This document shows, piece by piece, positions 551 to 16,918 of a stretch of 64,000 nt of DNA. The stretch covers positions 2,269 to 66,268 of the forward strand of contig CAKPER010000003.1 in assembly GCA_934149245.1 (NCBI GenBank), read 5' to 3'. The position numbers were made by a program, and so were the translations under genes. Numbering within the stretch: the stretch's first letter is position 1; every line of letters starts with the position of its first letter. The stretch is from an uncultured Bacilli bacterium. GTDB lineage: Bacteria; Bacillota_I; Bacilli_A; RF39; UBA660. The notes beneath the pieces are model-generated. The model did no database searches. It was not told the origin of the DNA and saw only the letters and a program-made list of their open reading frames with translations.

Positions 551-1168
551 ATGGCAAAAATTAATATAGGTGCAACAAAGAGTGCATTAAGTAAATTTTC
601 AGCTTCTTATGACATGGTTGGGAAGTTAATGTTAAAAATTAATAAAGATTATTTTAATGGAATTGACAAATACTGGAATACTTTAACTGCTCATAAGTAT
701 TTTTCAAGTATGGCTGAAAGCCTAAATAGTACTATAAAAACTATGAATAGTGCTTTTAGAGAGGCTAACGAATGTATTCAAAAAGCGGCTAATAATATAG
801 CTTCTGCTGAAGGTGGAACTACTGTTGGAAGTATTTCTTTGAATAATATCTCAGATATTTCAATTGGTTGGGCAGGTAAAGAAGATGGTTATAATTTACC
901 TTTAGAAGGAGAAGCTGCAGCACAAACTAGTTCACATTTTACAGCTCCTATGGCTCAGATTAAAGAGAAATGTGAGAATTGTAAATCAGCTATGGAAACT
1001 ATTAAAAGTAGTGGTTTAGGTGAACAAATTTCTGGCGCTGCAATTGCTGATATTACTAAAATGATTGAAAATGTAAGCAATATCATGGAAAAATATGATA
1101 GTAATGCGGTTAAAAGTGCTTCTAATGAAGATGTTAATGCTAAAAATTACAAAATTAAAACTAGTTAA
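551..1168 (+). CDS. helical WXG-like protein, candidate T7SS substrate
   Basis: AGGAGGA lies 6 nt upstream of the ATG. The 205-aa product has no signal peptide or TM segment and is rich in Ala/Ser/Asn helices. A W-x-G tripeptide (SIGWAGKEDG) sits mid-protein. The gene is in the EssC neighbourhood and is followed by a hairpin terminator. Confidence 0.45.
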   Translation: MAKINIGATKSALSKFSASYDMVGKLMLKINKDYFNGIDKYWNTLTAHKYFSSMAESLNSTIKTMNSAFREANECIQKAANNIASAEGGTTVGSISLNNISDISIGWAGKEDGYNLPLEGEAAAQTSSHFTAPMAQIKEKCENCKSAMETIKSSGLGEQISGAAIADITKMIENVSNIMEKYDSNAVKSASNEDVNAKNYKIKTS

Positions 1169-1205: not shown

Positions 1206-1237
1206 AAATCACATCTAAAAAATAGATGTGGTTTTTA
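1206..1237 (+). terminator. rho-independent terminator
   Basis: Stem CACATCTA / TAGATGTG with a 5-nt loop, extended by A:T pairs and followed by GTTTTT. Confidence 0.6.
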
Positions 1238-1337: not shown

Positions 1338-2258
1338 ATGCTAATAAATGTTGAAAAGATAAAATTTTTGACTCTCAAAATGAAAAAAATAAGAGATAAT
1401 TATGAAGATATCTGCATTAATTATTATGGTAATTTAAATAATGTTAAGGAATGTTGGAAGAGTAATAAAAGTGATGGTTATTTTAATGTTGTTAATAGTG
1501 AAAAAAAGTATTATTTTAGTTTATTAAATAATATTGATGATTTTCTTGATATATTTAAATATTTAATAAATAAGTATGATTCTATAGGTAATATAATTAG
1601 ATATGATTTTAGTTTAGAAGATAGTTATTTACAAAAAAAAATTAGTATAATTGATTCATTAAATGATATCTTAAATATTTATAATAATCTAAATATTAAA
1701 AAAATTAATTCATCTATTTTAAATTTAATAACAAAAGAAAAAGATATTTTATTGAATGGTTTAAAATTTTTAGAAGAATATTGTGATGCAAATAGAAATA
1801 CAATGAATGAAATTGTTTTTGTGGAAAATGATCTTAGAGAAAAGTTTTCTAAATTGGATGTAATAACTATTTCAGTTAGTGATTTTAAAGATTATATCTT
1901 TAATAATAAAGAAAAATATGATGAAATTGTTGTAGATGAAGGGAAAATAAAAACCATATGTAGTAAATTGGAATTTCATCTGAGTGAAGAGCAGAAATTA
2001 ATTAATGATTTGAATGATATCTTTATTGAAATGAGTGATTATTATAAAAGTGATAATATAGATAGAGTTGAAAGAATGGAATGTGAGATTATTTTGGCTA
2101 TGAATAATATTAGAAAAAATAAAATGTTGAATTATCAAATGCTTGTCAAAGAAATTACTAATATTATTCAAACAAGACAAGATGTTAAAAATATTTTAGA
2201 TGGCTTTTCTTCAAATGTTTATGATAATGTAGATAAATTGGAGGGTACTGATGTATAA
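1338..2258 (+). CDS. hypothetical helical protein, T7SS-locus associated
   Basis: GGAGG RBS. The 306-aa product is rich in Asn/Ile/Lys and has no TM segment. Its N-terminal motif ECWKSNKSDGYF resembles the VAWQSENSEAA turn of the paralogs downstream of essC. Confidence 0.4.
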   Translation: MLINVEKIKFLTLKMKKIRDNYEDICINYYGNLNNVKECWKSNKSDGYFNVVNSEKKYYFSLLNNIDDFLDIFKYLINKYDSIGNIIRYDFSLEDSYLQKKISIIDSLNDILNIYNNLNIKKINSSILNLITKEKDILLNGLKFLEEYCDANRNTMNEIVFVENDLREKFSKLDVITISVSDFKDYIFNNKEKYDEIVVDEGKIKTICSKLEFHLSEEQKLINDLNDIFIEMSDYYKSDNIDRVERMECEIILAMNNIRKNKMLNYQMLVKEITNIIQTRQDVKNILDGFSSNVYDNVDKLEGTDV

Positions 2259-2463
2259 TATTAATTATGATAAGATTATTAGTATAAAAGATAAATTAAC
2301 AAAGATAAATATTGAGAAATTATTAGAAATTAATAATAATTTTTTAAATATTGATGATGCTGTTGTTTCTGAGGATGTAATTTTAAATTTTGAGACGGAT
2401 ATTAAAGCTATTCTTAATGAAATTGATTATAGTGTATTACCTTATTTGAATGATGAAGTTTGA
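2251..2463 (+). CDS. small hypothetical protein (70 aa), translationally coupled to the preceding ORF
   Basis: The ATG overlaps the upstream stop by 8 nt and GGAGGG sits just upstream. Its size and helical composition fit the small accessory proteins common in T7SS loci. Confidence 0.35.
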   Translation: MYNINYDKIISIKDKLTKINIEKLLEINNNFLNIDDAVVSEDVILNFETDIKAILNEIDYSVLPYLNDEV

Positions 2464-2611: not shown

Positions 2612-5600
2612 ATGAGGGTATATTTGTTTTTAAATGATAAAATAGTAGATTTTGCTTTACCTAAAGAGATAGTTGGTAGTTTTAGTTTTGATGTTGATGA
2701 AGAGGAAGATATAAAATTAATTAATATTGAGGCTAAAAATGGTGGATGGGTAATATATTCTACTATTGATGTTAGTGTTCTTAGTGGAGAAAATAATATT
2801 TTAGAATTTCAGCAATTGATTAATAATAGTTTTTATATTTTGAGAAGAAGAGATATTAATTATTTAATATATGTTAGTGATTTATCCTTAGATAAAATAT
2901 CTTTGTATTCATATGTAGAGAATATGAATATAAATGTTGGTAATACTAGTAGTGCTACTGTATTGTATCCTTGTTCTTATCTTGTTAATGAGAATATTAA
3001 AATTACTATTAAGAATGAAAAAATTATTTTAGAATGTGATAAAAAAGATGGAATTTATATTAATAAGCTAGCTGTTATGGGAAATACTAATATTGTTAAT
3101 ATTGGAGATGAAGTAAATATTTATGCATTGAGATTAGTTTTTTTGAGTAAGATAGTTGTTATTAATAATCCTACTGGTAATGTATCAGTTTTATCTACTT
3201 CTAATTTGGTAAAATATGTCCTTCCATATGATAAGGAAGTTCCAAATAATCTGATAGTTAGAGATATTGAACTTTATAATAAAAAGGATTATTTTTCTAA
3301 GTCTCCTAGAATTAGAACTATCATTAATGAATTTAATTTAAAATTAAGTCCACCACCTAGAGAGAATAATAATGATGATTTGCCCTCTATTCTAACAATT
3401 GGTCCAATGATTACTATGGGAATAACTTCTGGTGTAATGATGTTGGAAGTTTATATAAAATTAAAAAATGGTGAAGTTAGTTGGAAGGATTCTTGGTCTT
3501 CTTTAGTTATATCTGGTACGATGTTATTATCAATGTTATTTTGGCCATTAATTACTGATTTTTATAATAAAAGAATGCAAAAGAAAAAAAGAAAAAAATT
3601 AGTTGTTAAATATTCCAAATACTTAAATGAAAAGAGAGAAGAATTAATAACGGAGCTTAATAATCAAAAACGTATATTAATAGATAATTTAGTAACTGTT
3701 GATGAGTGCTTAAATGTTATAAAAAATAGAAACATGAATTTTTGGAATAAAAGAATTGATCAAAGTGATTTTTTAACTGTAAGAGTTGGAGTTGGAAATG
3801 ATTTTTTCAAAGTTAATATAGAATATCCTGAAGAAGGATTTACGATGGATGAAGATGAATTAAAAGAACAGGCTGATCAGTTGGTAACGCAATTTAAATA
3901 TATAGAAAATGTTCCAATTGGATATTCGTTGTATGAAAATAAACTTACAGCAGTAATGGGAAGTAATAGATTAAAAAGTATAACATTTGTAAATAATATA
4001 TTATTACAGTTGTTTACTTTTTATAGTTATGAAGATTTAAAAATTGTTGTATTTACTAATAAATATAATGAAAATAATTGGGATTATATAAGGTATTTGA
4101 ATCATAATTTTAGTAATGATAAAAAAATTAGATTTTTTTCAACAAATAATGATAGTGCTGATGTTTTAGCAGATTTTTTATATAATTGTATGGTTACTAG
4201 AAAAAATCAAGAGAAAAATAGTGAAAAGTCGTCTAATATTTATAGACCATACTATTTAATTATTGTTGATGATTATAATATTGTTCGTGATTATGAATTT
4301 GTAAATATATTAACAGAGAACGATAATAATTTTGGAGTTGGTATGCTAATTATTGAAGAAAAGTTGAGTAAACTTCCTAGTAAATGTAACAATTATATTA
4401 CCATTCAGAATGGAAAGTCAGGTATTTTAAAGAATAGATATGATAGACAGGAACAAATAACTTTTGTTGATGAAGTTAATTATAATGTTGATTATATGCA
4501 AGTTGCTAGAATTATTTCTAATATTCCAATAGAATTTGAAGAGAAAGTTGGGTCATTGCCAGATACTATTAGTTTTATGGAAATGGATCATGTTGGTAAG
4601 GTTGAACAATTAAATATATTAAATCGATGGAATACTAATGATGCAACTAGTAGTTTAAGAGCTGAAGTTGGATTGAATAATCAAAAGAAGGTAATATATT
4701 TAGATTTACATGAAAAATATCATGGTCCTCATGGGTTGATAGCTGGAACAACTGGTAGTGGAAAAAGTGAATTTATTATTACTTATATATTATCTATGTG
4801 TGTAAATTATAGTCCTGATGATGTTTCATTTATTTTAATTGATTATAAAGGTGGAGGATTGGCTCTTGCTTTTGAAAATAAAGTAACTGGTATTTGTTTG
4901 CCACATTTAGCTGGAACTATTACTAATTTGGATAAAGCAGAAATGGATAGAACACTTGTTAGTATTGATAGTGAAATTAAAAGAAGGCAAAGAATGTTTA
5001 ATGAAGCTAGAGATGTTTTAGGGGAAAGTACTATGGATATTTATAAGTATCAAACTAATTACAAAATAGGTAAACTTCAAAAACCTATTCCACATTTATT
5101 TATAATATGTGATGAGTTTGCTGAATTAAAGAGTCAACAACCTGATTTTATGGATAATCTTATAAGTGTTGCTAGAATTGGTAGAAGTTTAGGAGTACAT
5201 TTAATTTTGGCTACTCAGAAACCTAGTGGTGTAGTAAATGATCAAATATGGTCCAATACTAGGTTTAGAGTGTGTTTGAAGGTACAAGATGAAGCAGATA
5301 GTAATGAGATGTTGAAACGTCCAGAGGCTGCACATATAACACAAGCTGGTAGATTTTATTTACAAATTGGATATGATGAGATATTTGTGTTAGGACAATC
5401 TGGGTATAGTGGAGCTAAATATTATCCTTCTGATAAGATAATTAAGAAAATTGATAAAAATGTTGATTTTATAGATGATTGTGGGAGTTTGATTAAGTCT
5501 GTTAAAGAAGAAGATAATGTAAAACTTATAGCACAAGGTGAACAGTTAGCGGCAGTTATGAAAAATATTATAAGTGTTGCTAATTCGGTTAATAAAAAGG

Positions 5601-7330
5601 CTAGACGTTTATGGTTAGATAATATTCCTAGCATTATTTTAGTTGATAATATATATAAAAAATACGCTTTAAAGTCTGTTGAATATGATGTTAAAGCAAT
5701 AATTGGAGAATATGATGCTCCGGAAAAGCAAGAACAAGGAATTGTTATTTATGATTATTTAGATAAAGGAAATACTATTGTTTATAGTCAAGTTGGTAGT
5801 GAATCTGAAATGTTTTTGGATTCGTTGATATATTCTTCATCTAAGTATCATTCTGCCAGTGAAATTAACTTTTATATTATAGATTATGGCTCAGAATCAT
5901 TAAGAAAATTTGTAAATCTTCCTCATGTTGGTGGAATAGTTTTTAATGGTGAAGAGGATAGATATAAAAGTTTGATAAGATTTATAAAGAAAGAGTTAGT
6001 TTATCGAAAAAGATTATTTGTTAATTATGGTAGTGATTATAAAAATTATATAAAGAATAGTATGACAAAGTTACCTATTTATACTATTATTATTAATAAT
6101 TTTGATACTTTTTATGAAATTCATGAAGAGGTGTATGATGAATTTCCAGAACTAATTAGAGATTCTTTTAGATATGGTATTGTATTTATATTTACATGTA
6201 GTGCTAGTGGTTCTATTCCAACTAAAATTTCACAAAATTTTAGTAATATATATGCTTTTAAGCTTAAGGAAATTGGAGATTATATAGATGTTTTTAATAC
6301 TAGTTCTAATGGGATTGTTCCAAGAAATATATCAGGAAGAGGTTTAATAAATAATGATGGTATACACGAATTTCAAGTAGCATCAATAGTTCAAAATAAT
6401 AGTGAATTAAATGATTATTTGATTAAATTTTCTGAATATGAGAATAAAATTACTAATTATAGGGCAATTTCTATACCTATGCTTCCAGATTTTGTTAGAT
6501 ATGAGTATGTAAAAACGTATATAAATACTTTAAAAAATATTCCAATTGGTATGACTAGGAGCGATTTAGAAGTATCGTGTTTTGACTTCTTAGAAAATGT
6601 TGGAACAATTATATCATCTAATAAACTTTCAAATATGGATATTTTTGTTAGAAGTTTGTTAGAGATTTTGAGAAATATTCCCAATATTAATTTGATTATT
6701 TTAGATCCATTAAAAAAACTTAGATTAAATCCAAAGTATTATCCTAATTATTTTATGGATGATTTTGGAAATGTATTATTGAAATTGACAGAATTTATAG
6801 AAAACTTGATTAAAAATAGAGATAAAAAAGAAGGAATATTAGTTTTGTATGGTTTAAGTAATTTTCCAAATTGTGTTAATGATATAGCGTTGTCGTCTGG
6901 TAGTGATATTAGCAATAATAATACTTTAGATGAAGATGATGAATATGATGAAGATGACGAGGATGATGAAGATGACGAGGATGATGAAGATTATTCTGAT
7001 GAAAATGTTGGAATATTATCAGGAAATAAAAACTTTATTAAATTCATGCAAATGGTATATGCTGATGGTCATATTGGGGTAATAGGAATAGATGATGCTC
7101 ATAAAATTAGAGATGTACAATATGAAGATTGGTATACACATATTTTTCCATCAGAAAATGGTGTATGGATTGGTGGAGGAGTTAGTGATCAAGGTGTATT
7201 GAAAACAGATGATTTTAATCAAGATTTTCAAGGAAAAATTCCTAATGAAATAGGTTTTAAAATTGAGGATGGTGGAATAGATAGTATAAAGTTATTAGAT
7301 TTTTTTAGTAAGAGTGGTGATTATAAATAG
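2612..7330 (+). CDS. essC: T7SS FtsK/SpoIIIE-family ATPase EssC (copy 1)
   Basis: 1572 aa. The N-terminus is FHA-like (MRVYLFLNDKIVDFALPKEIVGSF), followed by two TM helices (ILTIGPMITMGITSGVMML, LVISGTMLLSMLFWPLI). ATPase domain D1 has LDLHEKYHGPHGLIAGTTGSGKSEF (Walker A) and HLFIICDEFAELK (Walker B). Two further P-loop-like domains have degenerate Walker A sequences. Confidence 0.93.
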   Translation: MRVYLFLNDKIVDFALPKEIVGSFSFDVDEEEDIKLINIEAKNGGWVIYSTIDVSVLSGENNILEFQQLINNSFYILRRRDINYLIYVSDLSLDKISLYSYVENMNINVGNTSSATVLYPCSYLVNENIKITIKNEKIILECDKKDGIYINKLAVMGNTNIVNIGDEVNIYALRLVFLSKIVVINNPTGNVSVLSTSNLVKYVLPYDKEVPNNLIVRDIELYNKKDYFSKSPRIRTIINEFNLKLSPPPRENNNDDLPSILTIGPMITMGITSGVMMLEVYIKLKNGEVSWKDSWSSLVISGTMLLSMLFWPLITDFYNKRMQKKKRKKLVVKYSKYLNEKREELITELNNQKRILIDNLVTVDECLNVIKNRNMNFWNKRIDQSDFLTVRVGVGNDFFKVNIEYPEEGFTMDEDELKEQADQLVTQFKYIENVPIGYSLYENKLTAVMGSNRLKSITFVNNILLQLFTFYSYEDLKIVVFTNKYNENNWDYIRYLNHNFSNDKKIRFFSTNNDSADVLADFLYNCMVTRKNQEKNSEKSSNIYRPYYLIIVDDYNIVRDYEFVNILTENDNNFGVGMLIIEEKLSKLPSKCNNYITIQNGKSGILKNRYDRQEQITFVDEVNYNVDYMQVARIISNIPIEFEEKVGSLPDTISFMEMDHVGKVEQLNILNRWNTNDATSSLRAEVGLNNQKKVIYLDLHEKYHGPHGLIAGTTGSGKSEFIITYILSMCVNYSPDDVSFILIDYKGGGLALAFENKVTGICLPHLAGTITNLDKAEMDRTLVSIDSEIKRRQRMFNEARDVLGESTMDIYKYQTNYKIGKLQKPIPHLFIICDEFAELKSQQPDFMDNLISVARIGRSLGVHLILATQKPSGVVNDQIWSNTRFRVCLKVQDEADSNEMLKRPEAAHITQAGRFYLQIGYDEIFVLGQSGYSGAKYYPSDKIIKKIDKNVDFIDDCGSLIKSVKEEDNVKLIAQGEQLAAVMKNIISVANSVNKKARRLWLDNIPSIILVDNIYKKYALKSVEYDVKAIIGEYDAPEKQEQGIVIYDYLDKGNTIVYSQVGSESEMFLDSLIYSSSKYHSASEINFYIIDYGSESLRKFVNLPHVGGIVFNGEEDRYKSLIRFIKKELVYRKRLFVNYGSDYKNYIKNSMTKLPIYTIIINNFDTFYEIHEEVYDEFPELIRDSFRYGIVFIFTCSASGSIPTKISQNFSNIYAFKLKEIGDYIDVFNTSSNGIVPRNISGRGLINNDGIHEFQVASIVQNNSELNDYLIKFSEYENKITNYRAISIPMLPDFVRYEYVKTYINTLKNIPIGMTRSDLEVSCFDFLENVGTIISSNKLSNMDIFVRSLLEILRNIPNINLIILDPLKKLRLNPKYYPNYFMDDFGNVLLKLTEFIENLIKNRDKKEGILVLYGLSNFPNCVNDIALSSGSDISNNNTLDEDDEYDEDDEDDEDDEDDEDYSDENVGILSGNKNFIKFMQMVYADGHIGVIGIDDAHKIRDVQYEDWYTHIFPSENGVWIGGGVSDQGVLKTDDFNQDFQGKIPNEIGFKIEDGGIDSIKLLDFFSKSGDYK
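6929..6991 (+). repeat. in-frame 18-bp tandem repeat (about 3.5 copies) encoding a poly-Asp/Glu tract in EssC-1
   Basis: GATGAAGATGACGAGGAT occurs at 6947-6964 and identically at 6965-6982. A diverged copy precedes it at 6929-6946 and a half copy follows. Translation: DEDDEYDEDDEDDEDDEDDED. Confidence 0.9.
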
Positions 7331-7594
7331 ATGAATAATAAAGTATTGATAAAATTAATAGTACCTTCTTTAGATAAATCTTACGATTTATTTATTCCGG
7401 TTAATGAGACTATATACAAGATAAAAAAATTAATATTGGAATCTTTGAATGACATAGATACTAATATGTTGAATGTTTCTTATGTTTTAATAAATAAAAT
7501 AAATTCTAGGGTGTATAATAATAAAGAAATAGTTATTAATACTGATATTAGAAATGCAACAGAGTTAATGTTGTTATATAATTTTAATTTATAA
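7331..7594 (+). CDS. esaB: YukD/EsaB-like ubiquitin-fold T7SS protein (copy 1)
   Basis: 87 aa. The ATG directly abuts the essC-1 stop codon. The pattern VLIKLIVPSLDKSYDLFIPVNETIYKIKKLI matches the EsaB/YukD 'YDL..P' beta-grasp N-terminus. Confidence 0.75.
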   Translation: MNNKVLIKLIVPSLDKSYDLFIPVNETIYKIKKLILESLNDIDTNMLNVSYVLINKINSRVYNNKEIVINTDIRNATELMLLYNFNL

Positions 7595-7692
7595 CTTTAC
7601 AAAATGATATTAAATTGTTGCATTTTTCTTTATTATTATTGAATTTTAAAATGTTTTATGTTTTAATTATAATGGAAAGAGGTATTTGGTAT

Positions 7693-8361
7693 ATGAAGAG
7701 TCGTATTGTTGTGAATGTATCTAAGGTGAGAAATACAATTATTTATATTCAGAAACAATATGATCAAATATTTGCTTTTGCAAAAAGAACTCAAAAAAAC
7801 GGAATAGATGTTTTGGAATTAGCTTGGCAGACAGATAATTCTAAAAAAGTTATTAATGAATTAATTGGGAGTCTTAATAATAAAATGAAAAAAATAACTA
7901 ATCATTATAAAATTTTAATTAATTCTTTAAATAGTTATGCTAAGGAAATTTGTAATTCTGGTAATAATTATTGGGTTAATATCGAATTTAAACCCATTTA
8001 TTGGAAGTTTAGTTGTAGAAGTATTGAAAATGATGATTTTGTATATGATGAAGATAAAACTACAAGTTCAATGATTGAATTAAAGAAATTAGTATCTGAT
8101 ATAATAAAAATTCAATATGAAACTATACGTAAATTTAAAAATAATAATGAGTGTTTTGGTATTGAAAATAATAATTTTTGTGTAATTAACAAATTTCAAA
8201 GAGACATGAAGATTTTTATTGATGAAATTGACGGGGAATTGAATAGCTGTATAAAGAAAATTGATTTAAGTGTTAATAATCAAAAATATATTTTGGATAG
8301 TATAAACAAGAAATATAATAAAAGTGATTTTGATGGTAAAGATTGGAGTGTTGTTAATTAA
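7693..8361 (+). CDS. T7SS substrate-like double-hairpin helical protein, paralog A
   Basis: The start was moved to the ATG that aligns with paralogs B and C (MKSRIVVNVSKVRNTIIYIQKQYDQ versus MGTNIIVNREKCNQTIMYIQRQYDQ). It has the WXG-position motif LAWQTDNS and a C-terminal YNKSD (YxxxD). It ends in WSVVN. Confidence 0.6.
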   Translation: MKSRIVVNVSKVRNTIIYIQKQYDQIFAFAKRTQKNGIDVLELAWQTDNSKKVINELIGSLNNKMKKITNHYKILINSLNSYAKEICNSGNNYWVNIEFKPIYWKFSCRSIENDDFVYDEDKTTSSMIELKKLVSDIIKIQYETIRKFKNNNECFGIENNNFCVINKFQRDMKIFIDEIDGELNSCIKKIDLSVNNQKYILDSINKKYNKSDFDGKDWSVVN

Positions 8362-8379
8362 TGAAAAAGGAAGGTAAAT

Positions 8380-9102
8380 ATGGGAACAAATATAATAGTT
8401 AATAGAGAAAAGTGTAATCAAACAATTATGTACATTCAAAGACAATATGATCAGATAATGTATATGGCTAAAAAAAATCAAGAGAGAGGAATAGATGCTC
8501 TTTGCGTAGCTTGGCAGTCTGAGAATTCTGAAGCGGCTGTTAAAGAATTAGTAGTAAATTTAAATGCTACTTTTAAAACAATAACAAAAAGATATAGAAG
8601 ACTAATTAATAAATTAAATAATTTTGCGGAAGCTATATTTAAATCTGGTGGTGGTCATTGGAAAAGAATAGAATTTCAGGCTAGTAAAGAGTATCAATTT
8701 AGTGCAAGAAATGCCAAAAATGGTCAATTTAAGTATAATGAGACTGCTGTAACAGAGGCTATTGGAAGAATTAGACAGTTATCCAGAAGTATAGAAAAAA
8801 ATCAAAGAGAAACAATAGCTAAATTTGCTAGGAATAATGAAGTTTTTGGAAAGTCTGATAATCCACAAGTAATACAAAATTTTAAAAAAGCAATGCAAGC
8901 TTGTTCTAATGAGGTAAAACAAGATGTTAATAGATGTATAAAGAAATTTGGAATAACAGAGAAACAACAAAAGACAATGATTAGGGCTATTGAATCTGAA
9001 TATGGAAATGATGATTTGGATAGTTATACCAAATCTGGAAAAATAGTTGGTAGTGATAGTAATAATAATGATTCTTTAAATAATTGGTATCTCGTTAATT
9101 GA
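8380..9102 (+). CDS. T7SS substrate-like double-hairpin helical protein, paralog B
   Basis: GGAAGG RBS, 240 aa, no signal peptide or TM segment. Motifs: VAWQSENSEAAV, and YGNDD (YxxxD) near residue 208. It ends in WYLVN. Confidence 0.65.
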   Translation: MGTNIIVNREKCNQTIMYIQRQYDQIMYMAKKNQERGIDALCVAWQSENSEAAVKELVVNLNATFKTITKRYRRLINKLNNFAEAIFKSGGGHWKRIEFQASKEYQFSARNAKNGQFKYNETAVTEAIGRIRQLSRSIEKNQRETIAKFARNNEVFGKSDNPQVIQNFKKAMQACSNEVKQDVNRCIKKFGITEKQQKTMIRAIESEYGNDDLDSYTKSGKIVGSDSNNNDSLNNWYLVN

Positions 9103-9852
9103 TAATAGTTTATTTTGGTATTTTTTAAAAAATGTGTAATTTAATAGTGATAATTTTAATTTATAGAAATGTTTTGAAAAATTTATATATATTATATGAG
9201 GAGGAAAATATATGGGAACAAATATAATAGTTAATAGAGAAAAGTGTAATCAAACAATTATGTATATTCAAAGGCAGTATGATCAGATAATGCATATGGC
9301 TCAAAAAAATCAAATAAGAGGAATAGATGCTCTTTGTGTGGCTTGGCAGTCTGAGAATTCTGAAGCGGCTGTTGAAGAATTAGTAGTAAATTTAAATGCT
9401 ACTTTTAGAACAATAACAAAAAGATATAGAAGATTAATCAATAAATTAAATAATTTTGCGGAGGCTATATTTAAATCTGGTGGTGGTCATTGGAAAAGAA
9501 TAGAGTTTCAGGCTAGTAAAGAATATCAGTTTAGTGCTAAAAAGGCCAAAAATGGTCAATTTAAGTATGATGAGGTTGCTGTAACAGAAGCTATCGGAAG
9601 AATTAAGCAGTTATCCAGAAGTATAGAAAAAAATCAAAGAGAAACGGTAGCTAAATTTGCTAGAAATAATGAAGTTTTTGGGAAATCTGATAATCCACAG
9701 GTAATACAAAATTTTAAAAAAGCAATGCAAGCTTGCTCTAATGAGGTAAAGCAAGATGTTAATAGATGCATAAAGAAATTTGGAATAACAGAGGAACAAC
9801 AAAAGGCAATGATTAATAAAATTGAAAGTCAATATGGAAATGAATCTTTAGC
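8380..9852 (+). repeat. tandem gene duplication with an 832-bp period
   Basis: About 8380-9020 and about 9212-9852 are near-identical at the DNA level. The encoded proteins differ at about 11 of the first ~195 residues by eye. The copies then diverge completely at the 3' ends. Confidence 0.85.
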
Positions 9853-9958
9853 AAAATATAGTAGTGATGGCTATTTTAAGTCAGGTTTACAGCAAGGTGT
9901 TGTTTCTAGCTCGTTAACAGCAACGCTTTCTGGTACAATAAACGATGAAAAAAAATAA
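9212..9958 (+). CDS. T7SS substrate-like double-hairpin helical protein, paralog C
   Basis: GAGGAGG RBS, 248 aa. The N-terminal ~200 aa are nearly identical to paralog B. The C-terminal tail is different and Ser/Gly/Thr-rich (GLQQGVVSSSLTATLSGTINDEKK). Confidence 0.65.
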   Translation: MGTNIIVNREKCNQTIMYIQRQYDQIMHMAQKNQIRGIDALCVAWQSENSEAAVEELVVNLNATFRTITKRYRRLINKLNNFAEAIFKSGGGHWKRIEFQASKEYQFSAKKAKNGQFKYDEVAVTEAIGRIKQLSRSIEKNQRETVAKFARNNEVFGKSDNPQVIQNFKKAMQACSNEVKQDVNRCIKKFGITEEQQKAMINKIESQYGNESLAKYSSDGYFKSGLQQGVVSSSLTATLSGTINDEKK

Positions 9959-9986
9959 AAATTTAATTATATGAATAAAAATTAAG

Positions 9987-10025
9987 ATAATCACCCATTA
10001 TGTTATTGAAAGGGTGATTATTTTT
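9987..10025 (+). terminator. rho-independent terminator closing T7SS locus 1
   Basis: 10-bp stem ATAATCACCC / GGGTGATTAT with a 15-nt loop and a T-run. The T-run abuts the spoIIR ATG. Confidence 0.6.
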
Positions 10026-10553
10026 ATGAAGAAAACTATATTTATCATTTTAATAATAATTATTTCAATATTTGTTTATGTTACAGTTAATGCAGAGGTT
10101 ATAATTCCTAATGACGCTATTAGGGTTAGGGTTGTTCCTAATAGTAATAGTACTGTTGATCAGAATATGAAAGAAAAGGTAAAAGATTATGTAAGCCAGT
10201 ATTTGAGTTTAAAATTAAATGGAGTTACAGATGTAGATGAAGCTAGAAAAATTATCAATGATAATATTGACATTATGAATAAAGATATAGAAAAAATATT
10301 TAAAGATAATAATTATAAAATGAATTTTAAAATAAATTTTGGAGATAATCATTTTCCTGATAAGAATTATAAGGGGGTTATATATAAAGAAGGTGATTAT
10401 GAATCTTTAGTTGTTTATATAGGAGAAGCTAGTGGGGATAATTGGTGGTGTGTTTTATTTCCTCCATTATGTTTATTAGAGGCTGATTCTTCTGATACAG
10501 GAGAGGTAGAATATAGAAGTTTGATAAGTGATGTTATAGATAAAATATTTTAG
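10026..10553 (+). CDS. spoIIR: stage II sporulation protein R
   Basis: Signal/anchor helix, IRVRVVPNSNSTVDQ and the hallmark NWWCVLFPPLCL. The start was moved to the ATG at 10026 because the upstream GTG lies inside the terminator stem. Confidence 0.85.
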   Translation: MKKTIFIILIIIISIFVYVTVNAEVIIPNDAIRVRVVPNSNSTVDQNMKEKVKDYVSQYLSLKLNGVTDVDEARKIINDNIDIMNKDIEKIFKDNNYKMNFKINFGDNHFPDKNYKGVIYKEGDYESLVVYIGEASGDNWWCVLFPPLCLLEADSSDTGEVEYRSLISDVIDKIF

Positions 10554-10600
10554 TTATTTAGTGCATTAATTCATAATATTATTATATAGGTGATAATATT

Positions 10601-11137
10601 ATGAATTCTTTTTTTATGACACTTGCTGTTGGAATAAGTTTATCGATGGATGCTTTCTCGTTGTCAATTATTTATGGGATGCAGGGAATTAGTAAAAAAA
10701 ATGAAATTATTTTATCTATAGTGGTTGGAATGTTTCACTTTTTTATGCCTTTAATTGGACTTTTATTTGGTAATTTTATATATAATTATTTTATTTTTAA
10801 TTTTAATATTGTTATTGCTGTTATTTTTGGAATAATAGGGTTATCTATGTTGTTATCTATAAAGGAAGATAAGATTGTTGATGTTTCGTTAGGAATAGTT
10901 GGAATATTTTTGTTTGGACTTTCTGTTAGTATTGATAGTTTAATTACTGGTATTGGGTTTAGAGGTATTAATAATAATTATATTTCAGTATCTAGTATTT
11001 TTATGATATGTAGTGGTTTATTTACCTTTATAGGACTTAGGTTTGGTAATAAACTTAGTCAAAGATTTGGTAAATTATCTACTTTTTGTGGTGGAGGGAT
11101 GCTAGTTGTATTAGCTATCTATTATATTTTCAAATAA
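10601..11137 (+). CDS. DUF204 membrane protein (MntP manganese exporter / sporulation YtaF family)
   Basis: 178 aa with about 6 TM segments. It has the SMDAFSLSI motif at the N-terminus and a second DUF204-like half (SVSIDSLITGIG). Confidence 0.7.
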   Translation: MNSFFMTLAVGISLSMDAFSLSIIYGMQGISKKNEIILSIVVGMFHFFMPLIGLLFGNFIYNYFIFNFNIVIAVIFGIIGLSMLLSIKEDKIVDVSLGIVGIFLFGLSVSIDSLITGIGFRGINNNYISVSSIFMICSGLFTFIGLRFGNKLSQRFGKLSTFCGGGMLVVLAIYYIFK

Positions 11138-11193
11138 TTATAGACTTTAGTTGGTATCTTTGCTATACTTATTATAGTAGGATGGTGTTAGAG

Positions 11194-14100
11194 ATGAGAT
11201 TACTTATTTGTGATTCTTTTAGAATTAGTACTTTTGTTTTACCAACTAAAGTAGAAGATTATTTTACTATTAATTATTATTATTCTAGTGGCAGTTTTTC
11301 TACTATTGAAACTTTAAATTTGGAAGCTAAAAATGGTGTTTGGAATTTGTTAACTAATGAATCATTAATCATTAAACTTGGAGATGTTTTTCTTAAAGAA
11401 GTTGTATTGAAGGAATATTCTATTTATAAAATTAATTTTTCTGATATAAAAGAAAATATTTATATTTATGTTTTAGGGGATAGTGTTAATTATTACAATT
11501 ATTCTACTTTGGAATCTCAAAAAATTGTTATTGGTAATTCTGCTAATGCGACTATTTGTTGTGCAGATAAGGTTTCCCTTGAGGAACAATTAGTAATTTA
11601 TAGAGATGGAAATAGTAATTTTAATGTTGTAAATAATGATAATCCTAATTTATACGTTTATTTAAATGGTTATACATTTAAGGAAAAAAAGTTAGAAATT
11701 GGAGATGTTATTTTTTTAAATGGTTTAAAAATTATATGGATGGGTAATTTTATAAAAGTTAATCAAATAGGGACTCAGGCTCGTTTTGTGAAATTAACTA
11801 CTTTTAATGATTCTGTAAATAATGAATATACAAAGGTTTCTGATTTAGAAAGAAATGTAAAATTATTTAAGGAGAATGACATCTTTTTTCATACGCCTAT
11901 ATTAAGAAGTGATATAAAGGAATATACAGTTAATATTGAATTACCTCCACCACCTTATAATGAACAGGGAATGCCGATGATTTTAACTATAGGTTCTTCT
12001 GTTATGTTTGGACTTGTTTCTTGTGTAACTGGTATATCAGCTGTACAAGGGCTTATCCAAGGTAATATGGATAAAACAAGTGCTATTATTGAGCTTGTTA
12101 TATGTTTTTTAATGATTGTTTCTTCAATAATTTTTCCTATAATTACTGATGTTTGGGAACGAAATAGACAGAAGAAGATGGAAAAGTTACGTCAAGAGCG
12201 TTATAAAAGCTATTTGGATAAAAATATAGAAATGATTAAGGGTTATGTTATTGAACAGGAAAAGATTTTAAAAGAAAATAATTTGGATATGAATACTATT
12301 GCTAATGATATAAAAAATCATTCTAAGAGATTGTGGAGTAGGAATTTATTTGATAATGACTTTTTATCTATTACGTTTGGCGTTGGAGAATTTCCAGCTG
12401 CTATTTCAGTAAAAGTTCCTACTGAAGGGTTTTCAATGACTGATGATAATTTAAAGGAATTAGCATTTAGTAAGTTTGCTAAAAAACCAATGCTTAGCAA
12501 TGTGCCAGTTAATTTATCTGTTATAGATAATAGAATTTTACCAATTTTAATGAATACTAAGCTGAAAGATGATTTTATAAAATCTATTATGTTACAAATT
12601 CTTTATTATCACAGTGGAAAGGATTTAAAAATAGTTATTTTGACTAACAAAAACAATGAGGAGAGATGGGATTATTTGAAATATATGCCCCATTGTTGGG
12701 ATGATAAATTTACAAAAAGATTTTTTGCTGTTTCTGAATCTGAGATGACTGATGTGTCAATATTTTTAGAATCTGTATATGAGAAAAGAGAAAGCAGTTC
12801 CAATAGCAAAGCTGATAATGGTGCTGATAAGGGATATCTCGATTTTCCTGAATATTATTTGATAGTTACTGATGATTTTAAAACTGCTAAAGATACATCT
12901 ATTGTTAAAAAACTTATGGATAGTGATAACAATTTGGGATTTTCTTTGTTAATTTTTGCAAATTCTATTAATAATATGCCTAGTAAATTTAATAATTTTA
13001 TTGATATAAATGATGAAGAATGTTGTGTTTATGGCAGAAAGTTAGAAAAAAGTGAACAAGTAAAATTTAAGATGAATTGTTTGAGTAATATTAATATGAG
13101 TGATTATATTGATGTTTTGGCTAATATTCCTTTGTATAGTAAGGATATTAGTGTTGCTATTCCTAATAATTTGACATTTTTAAATATGTATAATGTAGGA
13201 AAAATTGATCAGTTAAACGTTCTTTCTCGTTGGAAGAATAATGATCCTACTTTTAGTCTTAAAGCACCTATAGGTGAAAAGGAAAAAAATAAAATTATTG
13301 AATTAGATTTGCATGAAAAATATCATGGCCCTCATGGATTAATAGCGGGTTCAACTGGTAGTGGTAAGAGTGAATTTATTATTACTTATATTTTATCGAT
13401 GGCTGTTAATTATCATCCATATGAGGTGCAGTTTATTTTAATTGATTATAAGGGTGGAGGATTAGCATTGGCTTTTGAAAATAGAGAAACTGGGGTTAAA
13501 ATTCCACATCTTGTTGGTACTATAACTAATTTGGATACTAGTGAAATGAATAGAACTTTAGTGTCTTTAAAAAGTGAACTTAAGAGACGTCAAAGAATTT
13601 TTAATGAAACTAGAAATAAACTAGGAGAGAGTACAGTAGATATTTATAAATATCAAAGATTTTACCGAGAAGGTAAAGTTGATGAACCTATGTCTCATTT
13701 GTTTGTTATCTCTGATGAGTTTGCTGAGTTAAAAGATCAACAACCTGATTTTATGGATGAACTTATATCTACTGCTCGTATTGGTAGAAGTTTGGGAGTG
13801 CATTTAATATTAGCAACTCAAAAGCCTAGTGGTGTTGTTAATGACCAGATATGGTCTAATACTAGATTTAGAGTATGTTTAAGGGTTCAAAGTGATGAAG
13901 ATAGTGTTGAAATGTTGAAAAGAAATGATGCTGCAACTCTAAAGAATACAGGAAGATTTTATTTACAAGTTGGTAGCGATGAAATTTTTGAGTTAGGTCA
14001 GTCTGGATGGGCAGGTGCTTTGTATAATCCTTCTGATAAAATAGAAAAGAAGGTAAATGATGATTTAGATTTTGTTGATAATTGTGGTAATATTATTAAA

Positions 14101-15801
14101 TCAGTTAACGATGCTGTTAATAAAGAAATTAATAACCAAGGAGAGCAGCTTACCAATATTGTTAAGTATTTGTATGATATTGCGAATAAAGAACAAATCA
14201 ATTTTAGCTCATTGTGGTTGCCTAGTTTGCCTGATGAAATATATCTTGGCAATCTTATAAAAAAATACAATTTTAAGCCTAATTATGAAAAATTTTCGGT
14301 TATTTTAGGAGAATTTGATCAACCAGCTAGTCAGTTTCAAGGATTATATACTTTGGATTTAATATCATCTAATACTGTTATTTTTGGACTTCCTGGTTGT
14401 GGGAAAGAAAATTTAATTACTACTATTATTTTTTCTGCTTGTATAGGTTATTCACCTACAGCAATTTCGTTTTATATTATGGATTTTGGTGCTCAAGTAT
14501 TAAAATGTTTTGATTCTATGCCTCATGTTGGTGATTGCTTGTTTTCAGAACATATGGATAAAATTTCAACTTTATTTTCAAAAATAGAAAGAGAAATAAA
14601 AAAGAGAAAAACATTATTTTCAGATTATGATGGAACATTTTCTTCGTATGTTAAGGAAAGTGGAAAAAGAATTCCTTTAATGGTTATTGTATTAAATGCT
14701 TATGAATCTTTTATTGAAAATTGTGATGTTGAATATGAAAGTTATTTAGCCCATTTGTTACGTGAAGGAAGTAAATATGGAATAGTGTTTTTAGTTAGTG
14801 CAGTTGCAACTAACTCTATTAGAGGAAGTATGATGGATTGTTTTGAAAATAAAATTATGATGCAAGTTCAAGATCCGTTTGATTATGAATTTTTAATAGG
14901 AGCAGAACATGGTATGCAACCTAGAAAAGCCTTTGGAAGAGGAATTTCTTTGATACCAGCTGTATCGGAAGTTTGTGAATTTCAGACTTGTTTTATAAAT
15001 AAGAAAGATGATATAACGTCTTATGTAAAAAAAGTTGGTGTTGAATTGTATAATAAATATAAATATAAAGTTCCAGAAATAAAGAATTTACCTAAAAAAG
15101 TAACATATAAAGATATGTATAAATATTTAAATGGTATTGATGCAATACCTATAGGATACACTAGAGATGATATATTAGTTTATTATTATAATTTTATTAA
15201 ACATAGATGTAATTTTATATTAGGAAATAGTGTAACTGATAATATTACATTTTTTGGAGGAATAATAGATTTAATTGATAATTTTGCAAAAATAAATTTT
15301 ACTATAATAGATTTTATTAATTGTATAGATTTTGAAGGAAATGCTATGATGTATCAGAGTAATTTTAATGAAGCATTTGATGATATTGTGAATGACGCTA
15401 ATATAGGAATTGTTAATTTATATTTTATTATTGGTTTAGGTAATTATGCTAATGTTTTAAGTGAGGCAGAAATAACTAAATTTGATAATATTATGTTACA
15501 AATGGATAAATTTAATAATAGTTATTTTATATTTGTAGATGATATTTCTAGAATTTCAAATGTAGAATCTAAAGCATGGTTTTCTAATTTTGACTTTTCT
15601 TTTGGAATATGGTCTGGCAAAGGCATTGAGGAGCAGACAATATTTTCAATTGATAACTTATTGGATGATGATGTAGATAGTGATATGAATGATATTGCAT
15701 ATGTTATTGAAAGTGGTAGTTATCAGGTCTTGAAAGTAATTGGCGATGGAGAGGTTGTAGAAAATGACAATGATACGTTAGGAGGATTTTTTAATGGATG
15801 A
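11194..15801 (+). CDS. essC: T7SS FtsK/SpoIIIE-family ATPase EssC (copy 2)
   Basis: The start was set at the ATG that aligns with EssC-1 (MRLLICDSFRISTFVLPTKV). Two TM helices. D1 has HGLIAGSTGSGKSEF and HLFVISDEFAELK. D2 keeps a partial P-loop (GLPGCGKEN). D3 is degenerate. Confidence 0.93.
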   Translation: MRLLICDSFRISTFVLPTKVEDYFTINYYYSSGSFSTIETLNLEAKNGVWNLLTNESLIIKLGDVFLKEVVLKEYSIYKINFSDIKENIYIYVLGDSVNYYNYSTLESQKIVIGNSANATICCADKVSLEEQLVIYRDGNSNFNVVNNDNPNLYVYLNGYTFKEKKLEIGDVIFLNGLKIIWMGNFIKVNQIGTQARFVKLTTFNDSVNNEYTKVSDLERNVKLFKENDIFFHTPILRSDIKEYTVNIELPPPPYNEQGMPMILTIGSSVMFGLVSCVTGISAVQGLIQGNMDKTSAIIELVICFLMIVSSIIFPIITDVWERNRQKKMEKLRQERYKSYLDKNIEMIKGYVIEQEKILKENNLDMNTIANDIKNHSKRLWSRNLFDNDFLSITFGVGEFPAAISVKVPTEGFSMTDDNLKELAFSKFAKKPMLSNVPVNLSVIDNRILPILMNTKLKDDFIKSIMLQILYYHSGKDLKIVILTNKNNEERWDYLKYMPHCWDDKFTKRFFAVSESEMTDVSIFLESVYEKRESSSNSKADNGADKGYLDFPEYYLIVTDDFKTAKDTSIVKKLMDSDNNLGFSLLIFANSINNMPSKFNNFIDINDEECCVYGRKLEKSEQVKFKMNCLSNINMSDYIDVLANIPLYSKDISVAIPNNLTFLNMYNVGKIDQLNVLSRWKNNDPTFSLKAPIGEKEKNKIIELDLHEKYHGPHGLIAGSTGSGKSEFIITYILSMAVNYHPYEVQFILIDYKGGGLALAFENRETGVKIPHLVGTITNLDTSEMNRTLVSLKSELKRRQRIFNETRNKLGESTVDIYKYQRFYREGKVDEPMSHLFVISDEFAELKDQQPDFMDELISTARIGRSLGVHLILATQKPSGVVNDQIWSNTRFRVCLRVQSDEDSVEMLKRNDAATLKNTGRFYLQVGSDEIFELGQSGWAGALYNPSDKIEKKVNDDLDFVDNCGNIIKSVNDAVNKEINNQGEQLTNIVKYLYDIANKEQINFSSLWLPSLPDEIYLGNLIKKYNFKPNYEKFSVILGEFDQPASQFQGLYTLDLISSNTVIFGLPGCGKENLITTIIFSACIGYSPTAISFYIMDFGAQVLKCFDSMPHVGDCLFSEHMDKISTLFSKIEREIKKRKTLFSDYDGTFSSYVKESGKRIPLMVIVLNAYESFIENCDVEYESYLAHLLREGSKYGIVFLVSAVATNSIRGSMMDCFENKIMMQVQDPFDYEFLIGAEHGMQPRKAFGRGISLIPAVSEVCEFQTCFINKKDDITSYVKKVGVELYNKYKYKVPEIKNLPKKVTYKDMYKYLNGIDAIPIGYTRDDILVYYYNFIKHRCNFILGNSVTDNITFFGGIIDLIDNFAKINFTIIDFINCIDFEGNAMMYQSNFNEAFDDIVNDANIGIVNLYFIIGLGNYANVLSEAEITKFDNIMLQMDKFNNSYFIFVDDISRISNVESKAWFSNFDFSFGIWSGKGIEEQTIFSIDNLLDDDVDSDMNDIAYVIESGSYQVLKVIGDGEVVENDNDTLGGFFNG

Positions 15802-16051
15802 TAAAGTTTTAGTTAAATTAATTGTTCCTGAAATAGATTCTGTTTATGATGTTTATTTACCAATTTCTAAAAAAATGGGAAATATTGTTATTTTACTTAA
15901 TAAAGCAGTTAATGAATTATCGTTTGGTAGTTTTCCGATTTCTTTAACTAATAAATTATATAATGCAAAAAATAATAAAAAATATGAAGCAAATATTTTA
16001 TTGTATAATACTGATATAAGAAATGGAACACGACTTATTTTGGTCTCTTGA
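15794..16051 (+). CDS. esaB: YukD/EsaB-like ubiquitin-fold T7SS protein (copy 2)
   Basis: 85 aa. The ATG overlaps the essC-2 stop by 8 nt. VLVKLIVPEIDSVYDVYLPISKKMGNIV parallels copy 1 and EsaB/YukD. Confidence 0.7.
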   Translation: MDDKVLVKLIVPEIDSVYDVYLPISKKMGNIVILLNKAVNELSFGSFPISLTNKLYNAKNNKKYEANILLYNTDIRNGTRLILVS

Positions 16052-16206
16052 TTAGTTAATTAATTTTCAATGTAATTATCTATAATTGGTTGATGTCAAA
16101 TTTTAGTAAAGAATAATTGTAACTATTTACTTTAGTGTATTTTTATGTTATATATGATTATAGTACAGTAGTTTTGTACAAATACGTTAAGATAGGAGGA
16201 ATTGTT

Positions 16207-16548
16207 ATGGGAAATTTAACGATGTCTAATGCTGATTATGCTAGAAATGCATCAGGTGCTAGGAAATTAGAAGTAGAGTTAAAAAGTGATATTAATAAAG
16301 CACATAAGGCTCTTTCTAAAAGTGATAAAGCTTATACTGAATTGGTAAATACTATAAGGACTTATTGGCGTGGTTCTGATGCTAATCAGTTTTTGAAGTT
16401 GCTTGACGATCAGAGAGCTAGTATTCAAGGAAAAATAAAAAAATTTGATACTATTGTATCTAATGCATTGTCTGCTGATCGTCAAAGTTTTGAAAAAACT
16501 CAGTCTGCAAATGCTAATAGAATACAAAGTAATATAAAGAAAATTTAA
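16207..16548 (+). CDS. WXG100-family protein (EsxA-like)
   Basis: The start was moved to the ATG 6 nt after TAGGAGGA. The 113-aa product is a helical hairpin with a true W-x-G (RTYWRGSDANQF) at residues 54-56. Confidence 0.75.
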   Translation: MGNLTMSNADYARNASGARKLEVELKSDINKAHKALSKSDKAYTELVNTIRTYWRGSDANQFLKLLDDQRASIQGKIKKFDTIVSNALSADRQSFEKTQSANANRIQSNIKKI

Positions 16549-16570
16549 ATTTTGGAAAGGAAGTGAAAAT

Positions 16571-16918
16571 GTGGCAACTAAAAAGAAAGCTAAAGCAGGT
16601 TCTAGTGATACAACAATAGGTATTGATATTAATGGTATTGCTAAGATGCAAAGTGCAATAACTAATTATGAAAAGACTATGAAAAGAGATGTAAAAATTG
16701 GTGCTACTGCAAACCAAATTAATCAAGCTATAAAAGGTAAGGATACTCAAAATTCTTTGAGACAATTAACAAGTCAAATTCAAGTTAAAATAAGGTCATA
16801 TTTAGGAGCGTTGGATCAATTTAATACACAATTAGGACAATTGAAATCTCAATATTCTACGGCTGATAAAAATAATGGTGTATTTTCTACTGCAACTAAA
16901 GAGGTAAAAAACAAGTAA
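16571..16918 (+). CDS. small helical Esx partner protein (EsxB-like, no WXG)
   Basis: GTG start after GGAAAGGAAG. The 115-aa helical product lies 22 nt downstream of the WXG gene. Its C-terminal region has YSTAD (a YxxxD/E-type motif). Confidence 0.5.
   Translation: MATKKKAKAGSSDTTIGIDINGIAKMQSAITNYEKTMKRDVKIGATANQINQAIKGKDTQNSLRQLTSQIQVKIRSYLGALDQFNTQLGQLKSQYSTADKNNGVFSTATKEVKNK

Follow-up and report, generated by a model that had tools for sequence, protein, structure and literature searches.

Tandem EssC motors with ubiquitin-like partners in an uncultured gut Bacilli bacterium: a probable reduced derivative of the T7SSb secretion system

Introduction

In characterised loci of the firmicute type VII secretion system (T7SSb), such as Ess of Staphylococcus aureus and Yuk/Yue of Bacillus subtilis, the genes for the membrane components EssB (YukC), EsaA (YueB) and EssA (YueC) share an operon with that for the motor, EssC (YukB). 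It has yet to be settled which component forms the channel of a T7SS, and which of its parts are indispensable. In the B. subtilis structure of 2025, YukB/EssC is the central element, which YukD and YukC help to assemble; the FHA and DUF domains of YukB take hold of YukD, and lateral contacts between YukB subunits form a central channel (PMC12637312). A wider set of subtypes, T7SSc-j, has been defined from RefSeq genomes only (Garrett, Higginson & Palmer 2024, PMC11217815); all of these keep TsxC and TsxA, and nearly all TsxB, with the other parts varying. Here we describe a 64,000-nucleotide (nt) stretch of contig CAKPER010000003.1 (GenBank assembly GCA_934149245.1) from an uncultured Bacilli bacterium, hereafter ‘the window’, which holds most of a ~31-kb T7 island made up of three tandem motor modules (0, 1 and 2), each with an EssC ATPase and a small ubiquitin-like protein (ubl). 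We consider it probable that this is a reduced T7SSb derivative of uncultured gut Bacilli, with a conserved core of EssC, ubl and soluble helical proteins (families that we call c3, c2, c5 and c4), one that does without EssB, EsaA and EssA and serves in antagonism.

The likeness to T7SSb extends to the type of EssC, with its two-FHA-type N-terminus, two transmembrane (TM) helices, active-looking D1 and degenerate D2 and D3; to a small ubiquitin-fold partner without a terminal Gly-Gly; to WXG100-like small proteins, DUF4176 proteins and polymorphic toxins with small genes downstream of them; and to a variable EssC C-terminus tied to variable cargo. The differences lie elsewhere: no EssB/YukC, EsaA/YueB or EssA/YueC is found in the island, or near EssC in its relatives; ubl sits immediately downstream of essC, whereas its T7SSb counterpart lies upstream of essB-essC; no canonical EsxA rises above the Pfam threshold, and a lineage-specific cassette of c3, c2, c5 and c4 is present instead; and the motors come as three in tandem.

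Among the other subtypes, the simplest described is T7SSg, of Acetivibrio and Paenibacillus, which comprises two WXG100 proteins, the ubl TsgB and the ATPase TsgC (PMC11217815); module 2 is equally minimal in content. However, TsgC lacks the FHA domain present here, and T7SSg has a DUF5050 beta-propeller protein, TsgL, and adjacent Tad pilus genes (PMC11217815); the island open reading frames (ORFs) that were scanned gave no DUF5050 or Tad match. T7SSf, of Clostridia, resembles our locus in that its host belongs to Bacillota and its ATPase bears FHA, with a ubl and a WXG100 protein alongside, but adds the PPM phosphatase TsfF, the DUF6382-FHA membrane protein TsfJ and the TadZ-like AAA+ ATPase TsfV (PMC11217815), none of which is in the island; indeed no mark of T7SSf, T7SSj or T7SSe (PPM phosphatase, DUF6382-FHA, membrane Ser/Thr kinase, TsfV or Ig-like TsxI) was seen in the island ORFs, or conserved nearby. 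Several motors per genome, each with its own substrates, and a ubiquitin-like domain that contacts the motor are also features of the mycobacterial ESX loci (T7SSa), each of which nevertheless has a full membrane complex (EccB, EccD, EccE, MycP) and an EccC without FHA. In the essC variants of S. aureus and Listeria monocytogenes, divergence of the C-terminal ATPase is likewise coupled to different downstream effectors; those, however, are alternative alleles with one essC per genome, whereas a single genome here has three complete essC genes in a row, each paired with a ubl.

The system falls outside T7SSa-j. In none of T7SSc-j does a T7SSb-type EssC that bears FHA, with ubl downstream of it, go together with a soluble helical cassette while every further part (membrane protein, kinase, phosphatase, propeller) is missing, and our literature searches returned no description of this arrangement or lineage. 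The broad T7SS core of TsxC, TsxB and TsxA (PMC11217815) is found in module 2, the ubl fold there being modelled on an 87-amino-acid (aa) paralogue; in modules 0 and 1, TsxC and TsxB are accompanied by c3 proteins, which are WXG-like.

The EssC motors

Judged by sequence, EssC-1 and EssC-2 are T7SSb-type EssC ATPases with a D1 that looks active. They score 952.8 and 917.1 bits, respectively, on TIGR03928 (T7_EssCb_Firm), the NCBIfam equivalog model for firmicute EssC, which has a cutoff of 778.4 bits, and their relatives carry the NCBI name ‘type VII secretion protein EssC’. Among solved structures, B. subtilis YukB (9qks) comes nearest to EssC-1 (E 7.7e-125), the match covering residues 227-989; the first 226 residues of EssC-1 gave no PDB match by single-sequence search, and a profile of EssC residues 1-235 built from 41 sequences matched the FHA domain of Ki-67 (E 1.1e-5), that of Geobacillus EssC (5fwh; E 5e-4) and GarA. 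The canonical phosphothreonine-binding Arg, Ser and His of FHA domains are not conserved in the aligned EssC stretch, and the FHA of T7SSb EssC has been reported to be without them (PMC11217815). Each of these two proteins has two hydrophobic segments at about residues 260-315, and in D1 of both EssC-1 and EssC-2 the Walker A (GxxGSGKS) and Walker B (hhhhDE) motifs are intact. At the 3′ ends, the stop codon of EssC-1 abuts the ATG of ubl-1 (7330/7331), and ubl-2 overlaps the end of EssC-2 by 8 nt. Taken together, the scores, FHA matches, TM segments, motifs and gene junctions therefore confirm what the initial annotation of the window had claimed on this point: two EssC-type motors, each with an FHA-like N-terminus, two TM helices and an intact D1, and each joined to a ubl ORF through abutting or overlapping start and stop codons.

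That annotation had also spoken of two paralogous modules. Both are real, but the count was wrong, as a third EssC module lies directly upstream of window base 1; and paralogues they are, but not simple copies, for EssC-2 is only 35-39% identical to either of the other motors (EssC-0 and EssC-1 share 59%) and the cargo sets differ. Identity across the three EssCs is 73-88% in D1 and 13-34% in the C-terminal third. A search of metagenome contigs for an EssC-2 orthologue found nothing above ~43% identity. For EssC-2 itself, the ATG at 11194 suits the N-terminus of the family better than the listed TTG at 11086. We note in addition an acidic 26-residue insert, LDEDDEYDEDDEDDEDDEDDEDYSDE, in the C-terminal domain of EssC-1 (aa 1439-1464; window 6926..7003), which neither EssC-0 nor EssC-2 has.

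Degenerate P-loops in D2 and D3 are by themselves not known as a sign of decay in EssC proteins. Such P-loops occur in both EssC-1 and EssC-2 (that of EssC-2 D2 reads GLPGCGKE), and, along with the missing canonical partners and the split toxin genes of some strains, they might be taken to mean that the modules are decaying or inactive T7SSb remnants, left without secretion once their membrane partners had been lost. We find this very improbable: the three EssC ORFs run uninterrupted for 4.6-4.7 kb in a 25% GC genome; D1 has stayed as similar as given above among paralogues that are otherwise 35-59% identical; the EssC-ubl pair is kept in 78 of 85 loci across many species, with 830 homologues in the ubl family; and the diversification of toxins between strains, described below, suggests ongoing selection.

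The ubiquitin-like partners

An AlphaFold2 (AF2) model of ubl-1, built on an alignment of 45 sequences that includes ubl-2, is a confident beta-grasp (pLDDT 90.1, pTM 0.78). Foldseek matches it to ubiquitin, NEDD8 and Hub1 (E ~4e-5, TMq ~0.7), and EccD5 of the ESX-5 complex, through its ubiquitin-like domain, has the highest TMq (0.75) of the 50 matches listed. Neither ubl-1 nor ubl-2 has a C-terminal Gly-Gly. When neighbouring ORFs were clustered, ubl adjoined EssC in 78 of the 85 loci; the family has 830 database homologues, all of them unnamed and none with a Pfam domain, and sub-threshold UBL Pfam matches were seen in 14 of 29 members. Matches of the ubl profile to Rabex-5, from a search of PDB sequences, were dismissed as spurious. 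The beta-grasp model and the gene position thus make ‘YukD/EsaB-like’, the name given at the outset, right in fold and position; at the level of sequence family there was no significant Pfam YukD match. As modelled, then, the ubl proteins are YukD/EsaB-like in fold and position, yet form a separate sequence family.

Missing membrane components

The absence of a local EssB, EsaA or EssA, already remarked on in the initial annotation, has held over all of the DNA inspected. Scans with Pfam and NCBIfam covered island ORFs and, in the rest of the window, the ORFs that are large or encode membrane proteins; they gave no match to EssB/YukC, EsaA/YueB or EssA/YueC. No ORF of the window is EsaA-like, the large ones being toxins, a metallophosphoesterase protein and a DcuC fusion; nor is there an EssA-like candidate, in that no small TM protein is conserved beside EssC and the small island ORFs of the window are without a TM helix. 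Upstream of base 1 the region could be followed for ~24 kb in all, through contigs L001 (a metagenome contig, found by exact-match look-up, that is 100% identical to the window and reaches 9.45 kb upstream) and L086. It contains no EssB, EsaA or EssA; what lies immediately upstream of the window, where these genes might have been expected, is the third EssC module, with housekeeping genes farther upstream.

The same pattern is seen beyond this genome. A genome collection, scanned with patterns tailored to this EssC clade, yielded 79 loci of different species; almost all belong to uncultured gut metagenome-assembled genomes labelled Bacilli, ‘Tenericutes’ or Erysipelotrichaceae, along with Clostridium sp. 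CAG:417 and Candidatus Onthousia (NCBI: Bacilli incertae sedis). From ±10 kb around EssC, 1,489 neighbouring ORFs were clustered, yielding a conserved order of EssC, ubl (78 loci), c3 (~215 aa; 53 loci), c2 (~190-300 aa; 57), c5 (~100 aa; 29) and c4 (~80 aa; 32), with frequent insertion, after ubl, of a DUF4176 protein, a large toxin and small genes. Upstream neighbours of EssC vary widely among the 79; no conserved membrane-protein cluster occurs within eight genes of EssC across this set, and the accessory families of these loci have no TM helices. In a distant low-GC set of 27 ubl-EssC loci, the ten upstream neighbours that were sampled included no T7SS membrane component, and part of them matched no family. 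Proteins of ~620 aa and 1074 aa upstream of EssC in that set were considered as EssB or EsaA and rejected, the candidates being ABC/FtsX, cadherin-like, DUF2779, VanZ or DUF285 proteins; the 1074-aa neighbour with six TM helices, in L104, is an ABC/FtsX protein.

It may be argued that these are ordinary T7SSb motors, all using a single set of EssB, EsaA and EssA that is encoded elsewhere in the genome, whether unlinked or in a fourth, canonical locus. The EssCs do score as T7SSb equivalogs, and they keep an FHA domain without the phosphothreonine-binding residues, as in T7SSb, where FHA2 docks YukC (PMC12637312); moreover, the DNA inspected extends to ~98 kb in this genome and, in its relatives, to 10 kb on either side of EssC, and scan patterns specific to this EssC clade would have missed a distant canonical locus. 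Nonetheless we think a shared core unlikely. No membrane family is conserved near EssC in either the 79 related or the 27 distant loci, whereas in characterised T7SSb the membrane genes belong to the essC operon (gene orders in PMC12637312); the neighbours that are conserved here form a different, soluble set; and the published subtypes c-j show that EssB, EsaA and EssA are dispensable for T7SS as a class (PMC11217815). The lineage-wide pattern favours an apparatus of EssC and ubl only over a distant shared core.

Soluble cassettes and candidate cargo

Module 0 comprises EssC-0, its ubl, a strain-variable polymorphic toxin and small genes, followed by a cassette of 205-, 306- and 70-aa ORFs; module 1 has EssC-1, ubl-1 and three c3-like paralogues; and module 2 has EssC-2, ubl-2, a divergent WXG100 protein and a 115-aa ORF. 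The three cassette ORFs had been named as possible diverged EssB or EssA equivalents. None of them has a TM helix or a match to YukC, EssA or EsaA, and the 306- and 70-aa ORFs have no Pfam match at all. By profile-profile comparison (hhalign), the 205-aa ORF matches c3 (95.7% probability, E 8.4e-9), the C-terminal part of long c2 forms such as the 306-aa ORF matches c5 (97.2%, E 3e-11), and the assignment of the 70-aa ORF to c4 has its basis in a match between c4 and c17 (89.5%, E 2e-6). Many related species have c2 and c5 as separate, adjacent genes, and species with a long c2 have no separate c5. These ORFs are therefore the soluble helical cassette of module 0 (c3, c2+c5, c4), and not diverged EssB or EssA.

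The 205-aa ORF also has weak matches to TIGR03930 WXG100 (E 9.4e-5) and Pfam WXG100 (E 0.015). Its AF2 model, of low confidence (pLDDT 62) and built on a shallow alignment of seven sequences (the homologue search gave four proteins), contains two helical hairpins, with W42 at the turn between H6-41 and H45-86. A single invariant Trp is found in each of c3 (W42) and c2 (W40), in a motif which looks, on inspection by eye, like the WxG region of the WXG100 family; matches of c3 and c2 to WXG100 are sub-threshold only, their profiles find weak EsxA matches or coiled-coil noise among PDB sequences, and LXG (Pfam) matched one of 67 c2, c5 and c4 members.

Behind EssC-1, where small WXG proteins had been proposed, stand instead three ~240-aa paralogues of a WXG-like helical family, placed as c3-like by a match between the c3 and c10 profiles (95.7% probability, E 9.1e-9, 199 columns). 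Paralogue a is 38-41% identical to b and c; b and c are 93% identical over their first ~200 aa and 32% in the C-terminal tail. It is within this b/c array that L001 differs from the window, which suggests that recombination has taken place among the copies. All three are probable cargo of EssC-1.

Family-level WXG100 support, claimed at first for the small ORFs in general, is confined to the 114-aa ORF of module 2, the others being without it. Its family numbers 101 homologues of ~100-115 aa with an invariant W55-x-G57-x-D59; Pfam WXG100 (PF06013) is by far the commonest family among 71 of these (22 matches, best E 8.6e-5), S. aureus EsxA matches at E 0.16, and the 114-aa ORF itself has no Pfam match at E<0.1. 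We regard it as a candidate EsxA/TsxA for module 2. The 115-aa ORF, which has neither a family match nor a profile match to the other accessory families, is by its position a possible partner.

The toxin of module 0 varies in length from 741 to 1966 aa among strains of one species, and its C-terminal domain differs too; some versions end in an ADP-ribosyltransferase domain (ADPrib_exo_Tox), and in some contigs the gene is split. Five toxins were scanned with Pfam, two of which have an ADP-ribosyltransferase domain. DUF4176 proteins, as known from the LXG toxin system, occur near EssC in related loci (24 members). Together, the toxins, the DUF4176 proteins and the replacement of toxins between strains point to interbacterial antagonism.

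A model for the reduced system

We propose the following model for how such a reduced T7SSb derivative might work. By analogy with B. subtilis YukB-YukD, each EssC would hold its cognate ubl in a clamp made by its FHA and DUF domains, the bound ubl fixing the conformation of the FHA and bringing about an assembly-competent state. EssC hexamers, held by lateral contacts between subunits, would then form a membrane channel, through which ATP hydrolysis at D1 would drive substrates of helical-hairpin type, namely proteins of the c3 kind, the WXG100 protein, and toxins with their small helical partners. The divergent C-terminal third of EssC may set the cargo specificity of each motor; we infer such selection from the literature on essC variants and from the pattern of divergence, and if it holds, then each motor serves its own downstream genes. 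The biological role would most likely be contact-dependent antagonism between bacteria in the gut.

A bolder form of this proposal is that we are looking at a natural minimal T7SS, in which ubl-locked EssC is the only membrane component, c3, c2, c5 and c4 replace the functions of EsxA, EssB, EsaA and EssA, and the three motors are cargo-specific. This we hold tentatively, and would stop short of calling it probable.

Several results, in addition to the limited span of DNA inspected and the clade-specific scan patterns, weigh against a reduced system of this kind. In B. subtilis, YukC is required for a stable core unit (PMC12637312), so that, in a machine without YukC, both the hexamer and the FHA domains would have to be stabilised by other means. 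YukD is absent from the best 50 fold matches of ubl-1, and no significant Pfam YukD match was found for the ubl ORFs or for 29 family members (best E 0.065, in 2 of the 29). On the cargo side, the c2-c5 families and the 115-aa ORF have faint or no similarity to WXG100 or LXG, so that it is from their position that we infer them to be substrates; a Foldseek search with the low-confidence 205-aa model was uninformative; the Pfam LXG domain (PF04740) matched none of the five scanned toxins; and a c3- or c2-like targeting domain on toxin N-termini was considered and rejected, having no support by hmmsearch.

If the proposal is correct, a widespread lineage with EssC and ubl, and without EssB, EsaA and EssA, would offer a ready-made minimal system for reconstitution and structural work, and the T7SSa-j catalogue would extend into uncultured gut Bacilli; were the minimal form to hold, an EssC hexamer could by itself provide the translocation channel through a Gram-positive envelope. 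With three motors in one genome that differ in C-terminus and in cargo, substrate choice by EssC could be tested cleanly, and ADP-ribosyltransferase toxins that vary between strains point to warfare among bacteria in a common uncultured gut organism.

Genomic setting and the sporulation genes

The island begins with module 0, ~14 kb upstream of window base 1. Upstream of it (L086) are thrS, prfA, prmC and genes for a P-type ATPase, a short-chain dehydrogenase (SDR) and a VanY/M15 peptidase, and downstream, after module 2, are murA and rpmE; the ~31-kb island is thus flanked on both sides by housekeeping genes. Coordinates of its features are collected in Table 1.

Table 1. Features of the T7 island and of related loci; positions refer to the window unless a contig or locus is named.
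Feature	Position	Strand	Description
EssC-0	upstream of window base 1 (L001:1-9450; L086:10001-22000)		1524 aa; with 79-aa ubl and large toxin
169-aa gene, 3′ part	2..403	+	133 codons, cut by window start; last gene of the EssC-0 toxin/accessory block
c3 member	551..1168	+	205 aa; soluble, WXG-like helical; first gene of the c3-c2-c5-c4 cassette
Terminator-like hairpin	1206..1234	+	12-bp stem, T-rich tail; directly 3′ of the 205-aa gene
c2+c5 fusion	1338..2258	+	306 aa; soluble helical; clusters with c2
c4 member	2251..2463	+	70 aa; helical; last gene of the conserved cassette
EssC-1	2612..7330	+	1572 aa; T7SSb-type FtsK/SpoIIIE ATPase; FHA-type N-terminus, 2 TM helices, DUF/stalk region, D1 intact
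ubl-1	7331..7594	+	87 aa; beta-grasp (modelled); positional/structural counterpart of EsaB/YukD/TsxB
c3-like paralogue a	7693..8361	+	222 aa from ATG at 7693 (TTG at 7615 listed as start)
c3-like paralogue b	8380..9102	+	240 aa
c3-like paralogue c	9212..9958	+	248 aa
EssC-2	11194..15801	+	1535 aa; architecture as EssC-1; distant paralogue of EssC-0/EssC-1
ubl-2	15794..16051	+	85 aa; 35% identical to ubl-1; in the ubl-1 BLAST cluster and alignment
Divergent WXG100-family protein	16204..16548	+	114 aa; motif YWRGSDANQF
115-aa ORF	16571..16918	+	22 nt after the 114-aa ORF
c22 kinase examples	L012:19270-20025; L017:19319-20047; L022:17221-17949		also in four other related loci

Module 2 lies among sporulation genes. 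Pfam and NCBIfam scans bear out the borders first given for this locus, namely spoIIR and an Mntp/DUF204 (YtaF-like) gene on one side and murA on the other, and place spoIID, an M23 peptidase gene and spoIIID in its flanks as well; spoIIR, mntP and EssC-2 are co-oriented, with gaps of 47 and 56 nt and no predicted terminator between them, making read-through from spoIIR into EssC-2 possible. On these grounds one might suppose that sporulation or development is what the EssC-like ATPases are for, perhaps through the transfer of protein or DNA between mother cell and forespore; a developmental link had been suggested at the start, from the position among spoIIR, spoIID, a spoIIQ-like gene and spoIIID. 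The genes are real, but the link is not supported, and we judge this reading to be very improbable: EssC neighbourhoods differ among species, with spoIIR near EssC in just one other of the 79 related loci (L066), and the cargo encoded belongs to the toxin, DUF4176 and WXG types. Furthermore, the background order prfA-prmC...spoIIR-ywlD-like...murA-rpmE...rpiB-spoIID...spoIIID matches what we take to be the conserved B. subtilis arrangement, so that the T7 modules look like insertions into an ancestral housekeeping and sporulation synteny block. A sigma-70 promoter scan was at chance level (143 sites, against 144.6 expected from shuffled sequence).

Two repeats on the island may bear on its transcription. 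The hairpin that follows the 205-aa gene is the only strong intergenic terminator-like site on the + strand of the island, and may allow this c3 gene a higher expression than the rest of the cassette. In addition, an inverted repeat, AATCACCC ... GGGTGATT, with a T-rich stretch is located at window 9993..10022 (coordinates by eye), just before the likely spoIIR ATG near 10026, and may terminate the transcript of the EssC-1 module.

Adjoining EssC-0, ~14 kb upstream of the window, is the gene for the 472-aa VanY/Peptidase_M15_4 cell-wall peptidase (L086:8419-9837), divergent and on the opposite strand; a wall hydrolase next to a T7 motor could have relevance for wall crossing. The gene cut by the window start can be seen in full in L001; its 169-aa product has no Pfam match and no TM helix, and possibly has an immunity or accessory role.

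Further observations

Seven related cassettes encode, in the interval from the toxin/immunity genes to c3, a soluble Hanks-type Ser/Thr kinase domain of ~250 aa (c22). Its matches are to PknB, StkP and Stk1 (E ~1e-30), with HCDLKPSN conserved and DFG variable, and there is none in the genome of the window. As a candidate for an EssB without its TM helix c22 was rejected, being of Hanks PknB/StkP type, not YukC type, and absent from this genome.

Many of the distant low-GC loci (L092-L117) have ubl before EssC, then a c3/c10-like gene of ~205 aa, and after it a very long ORF (1325-2909 aa) that may encode a toxin; in L107 a neighbour has the mycoplasma-type DUF285. This suggests, on gene content, a broader clade of EssC and ubl systems in wall-reduced or small-genome Bacilli.

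Elsewhere in the window, a 396-aa ORF at 34155..35345 has a C-terminal TM helix and no Pfam match, and a 1150-aa ORF at 23607..27059 has a C-terminal metallophosphoesterase domain as the only domain found, with ~900 residues outside it. Finally, the window is of ~25% GC with a strongly positive GC skew; over its first 36 kb the skew is about +0.4 and nearly all genes are on the + strand, and this combination of skew and gene orientation is consistent with placement on the leading strand.

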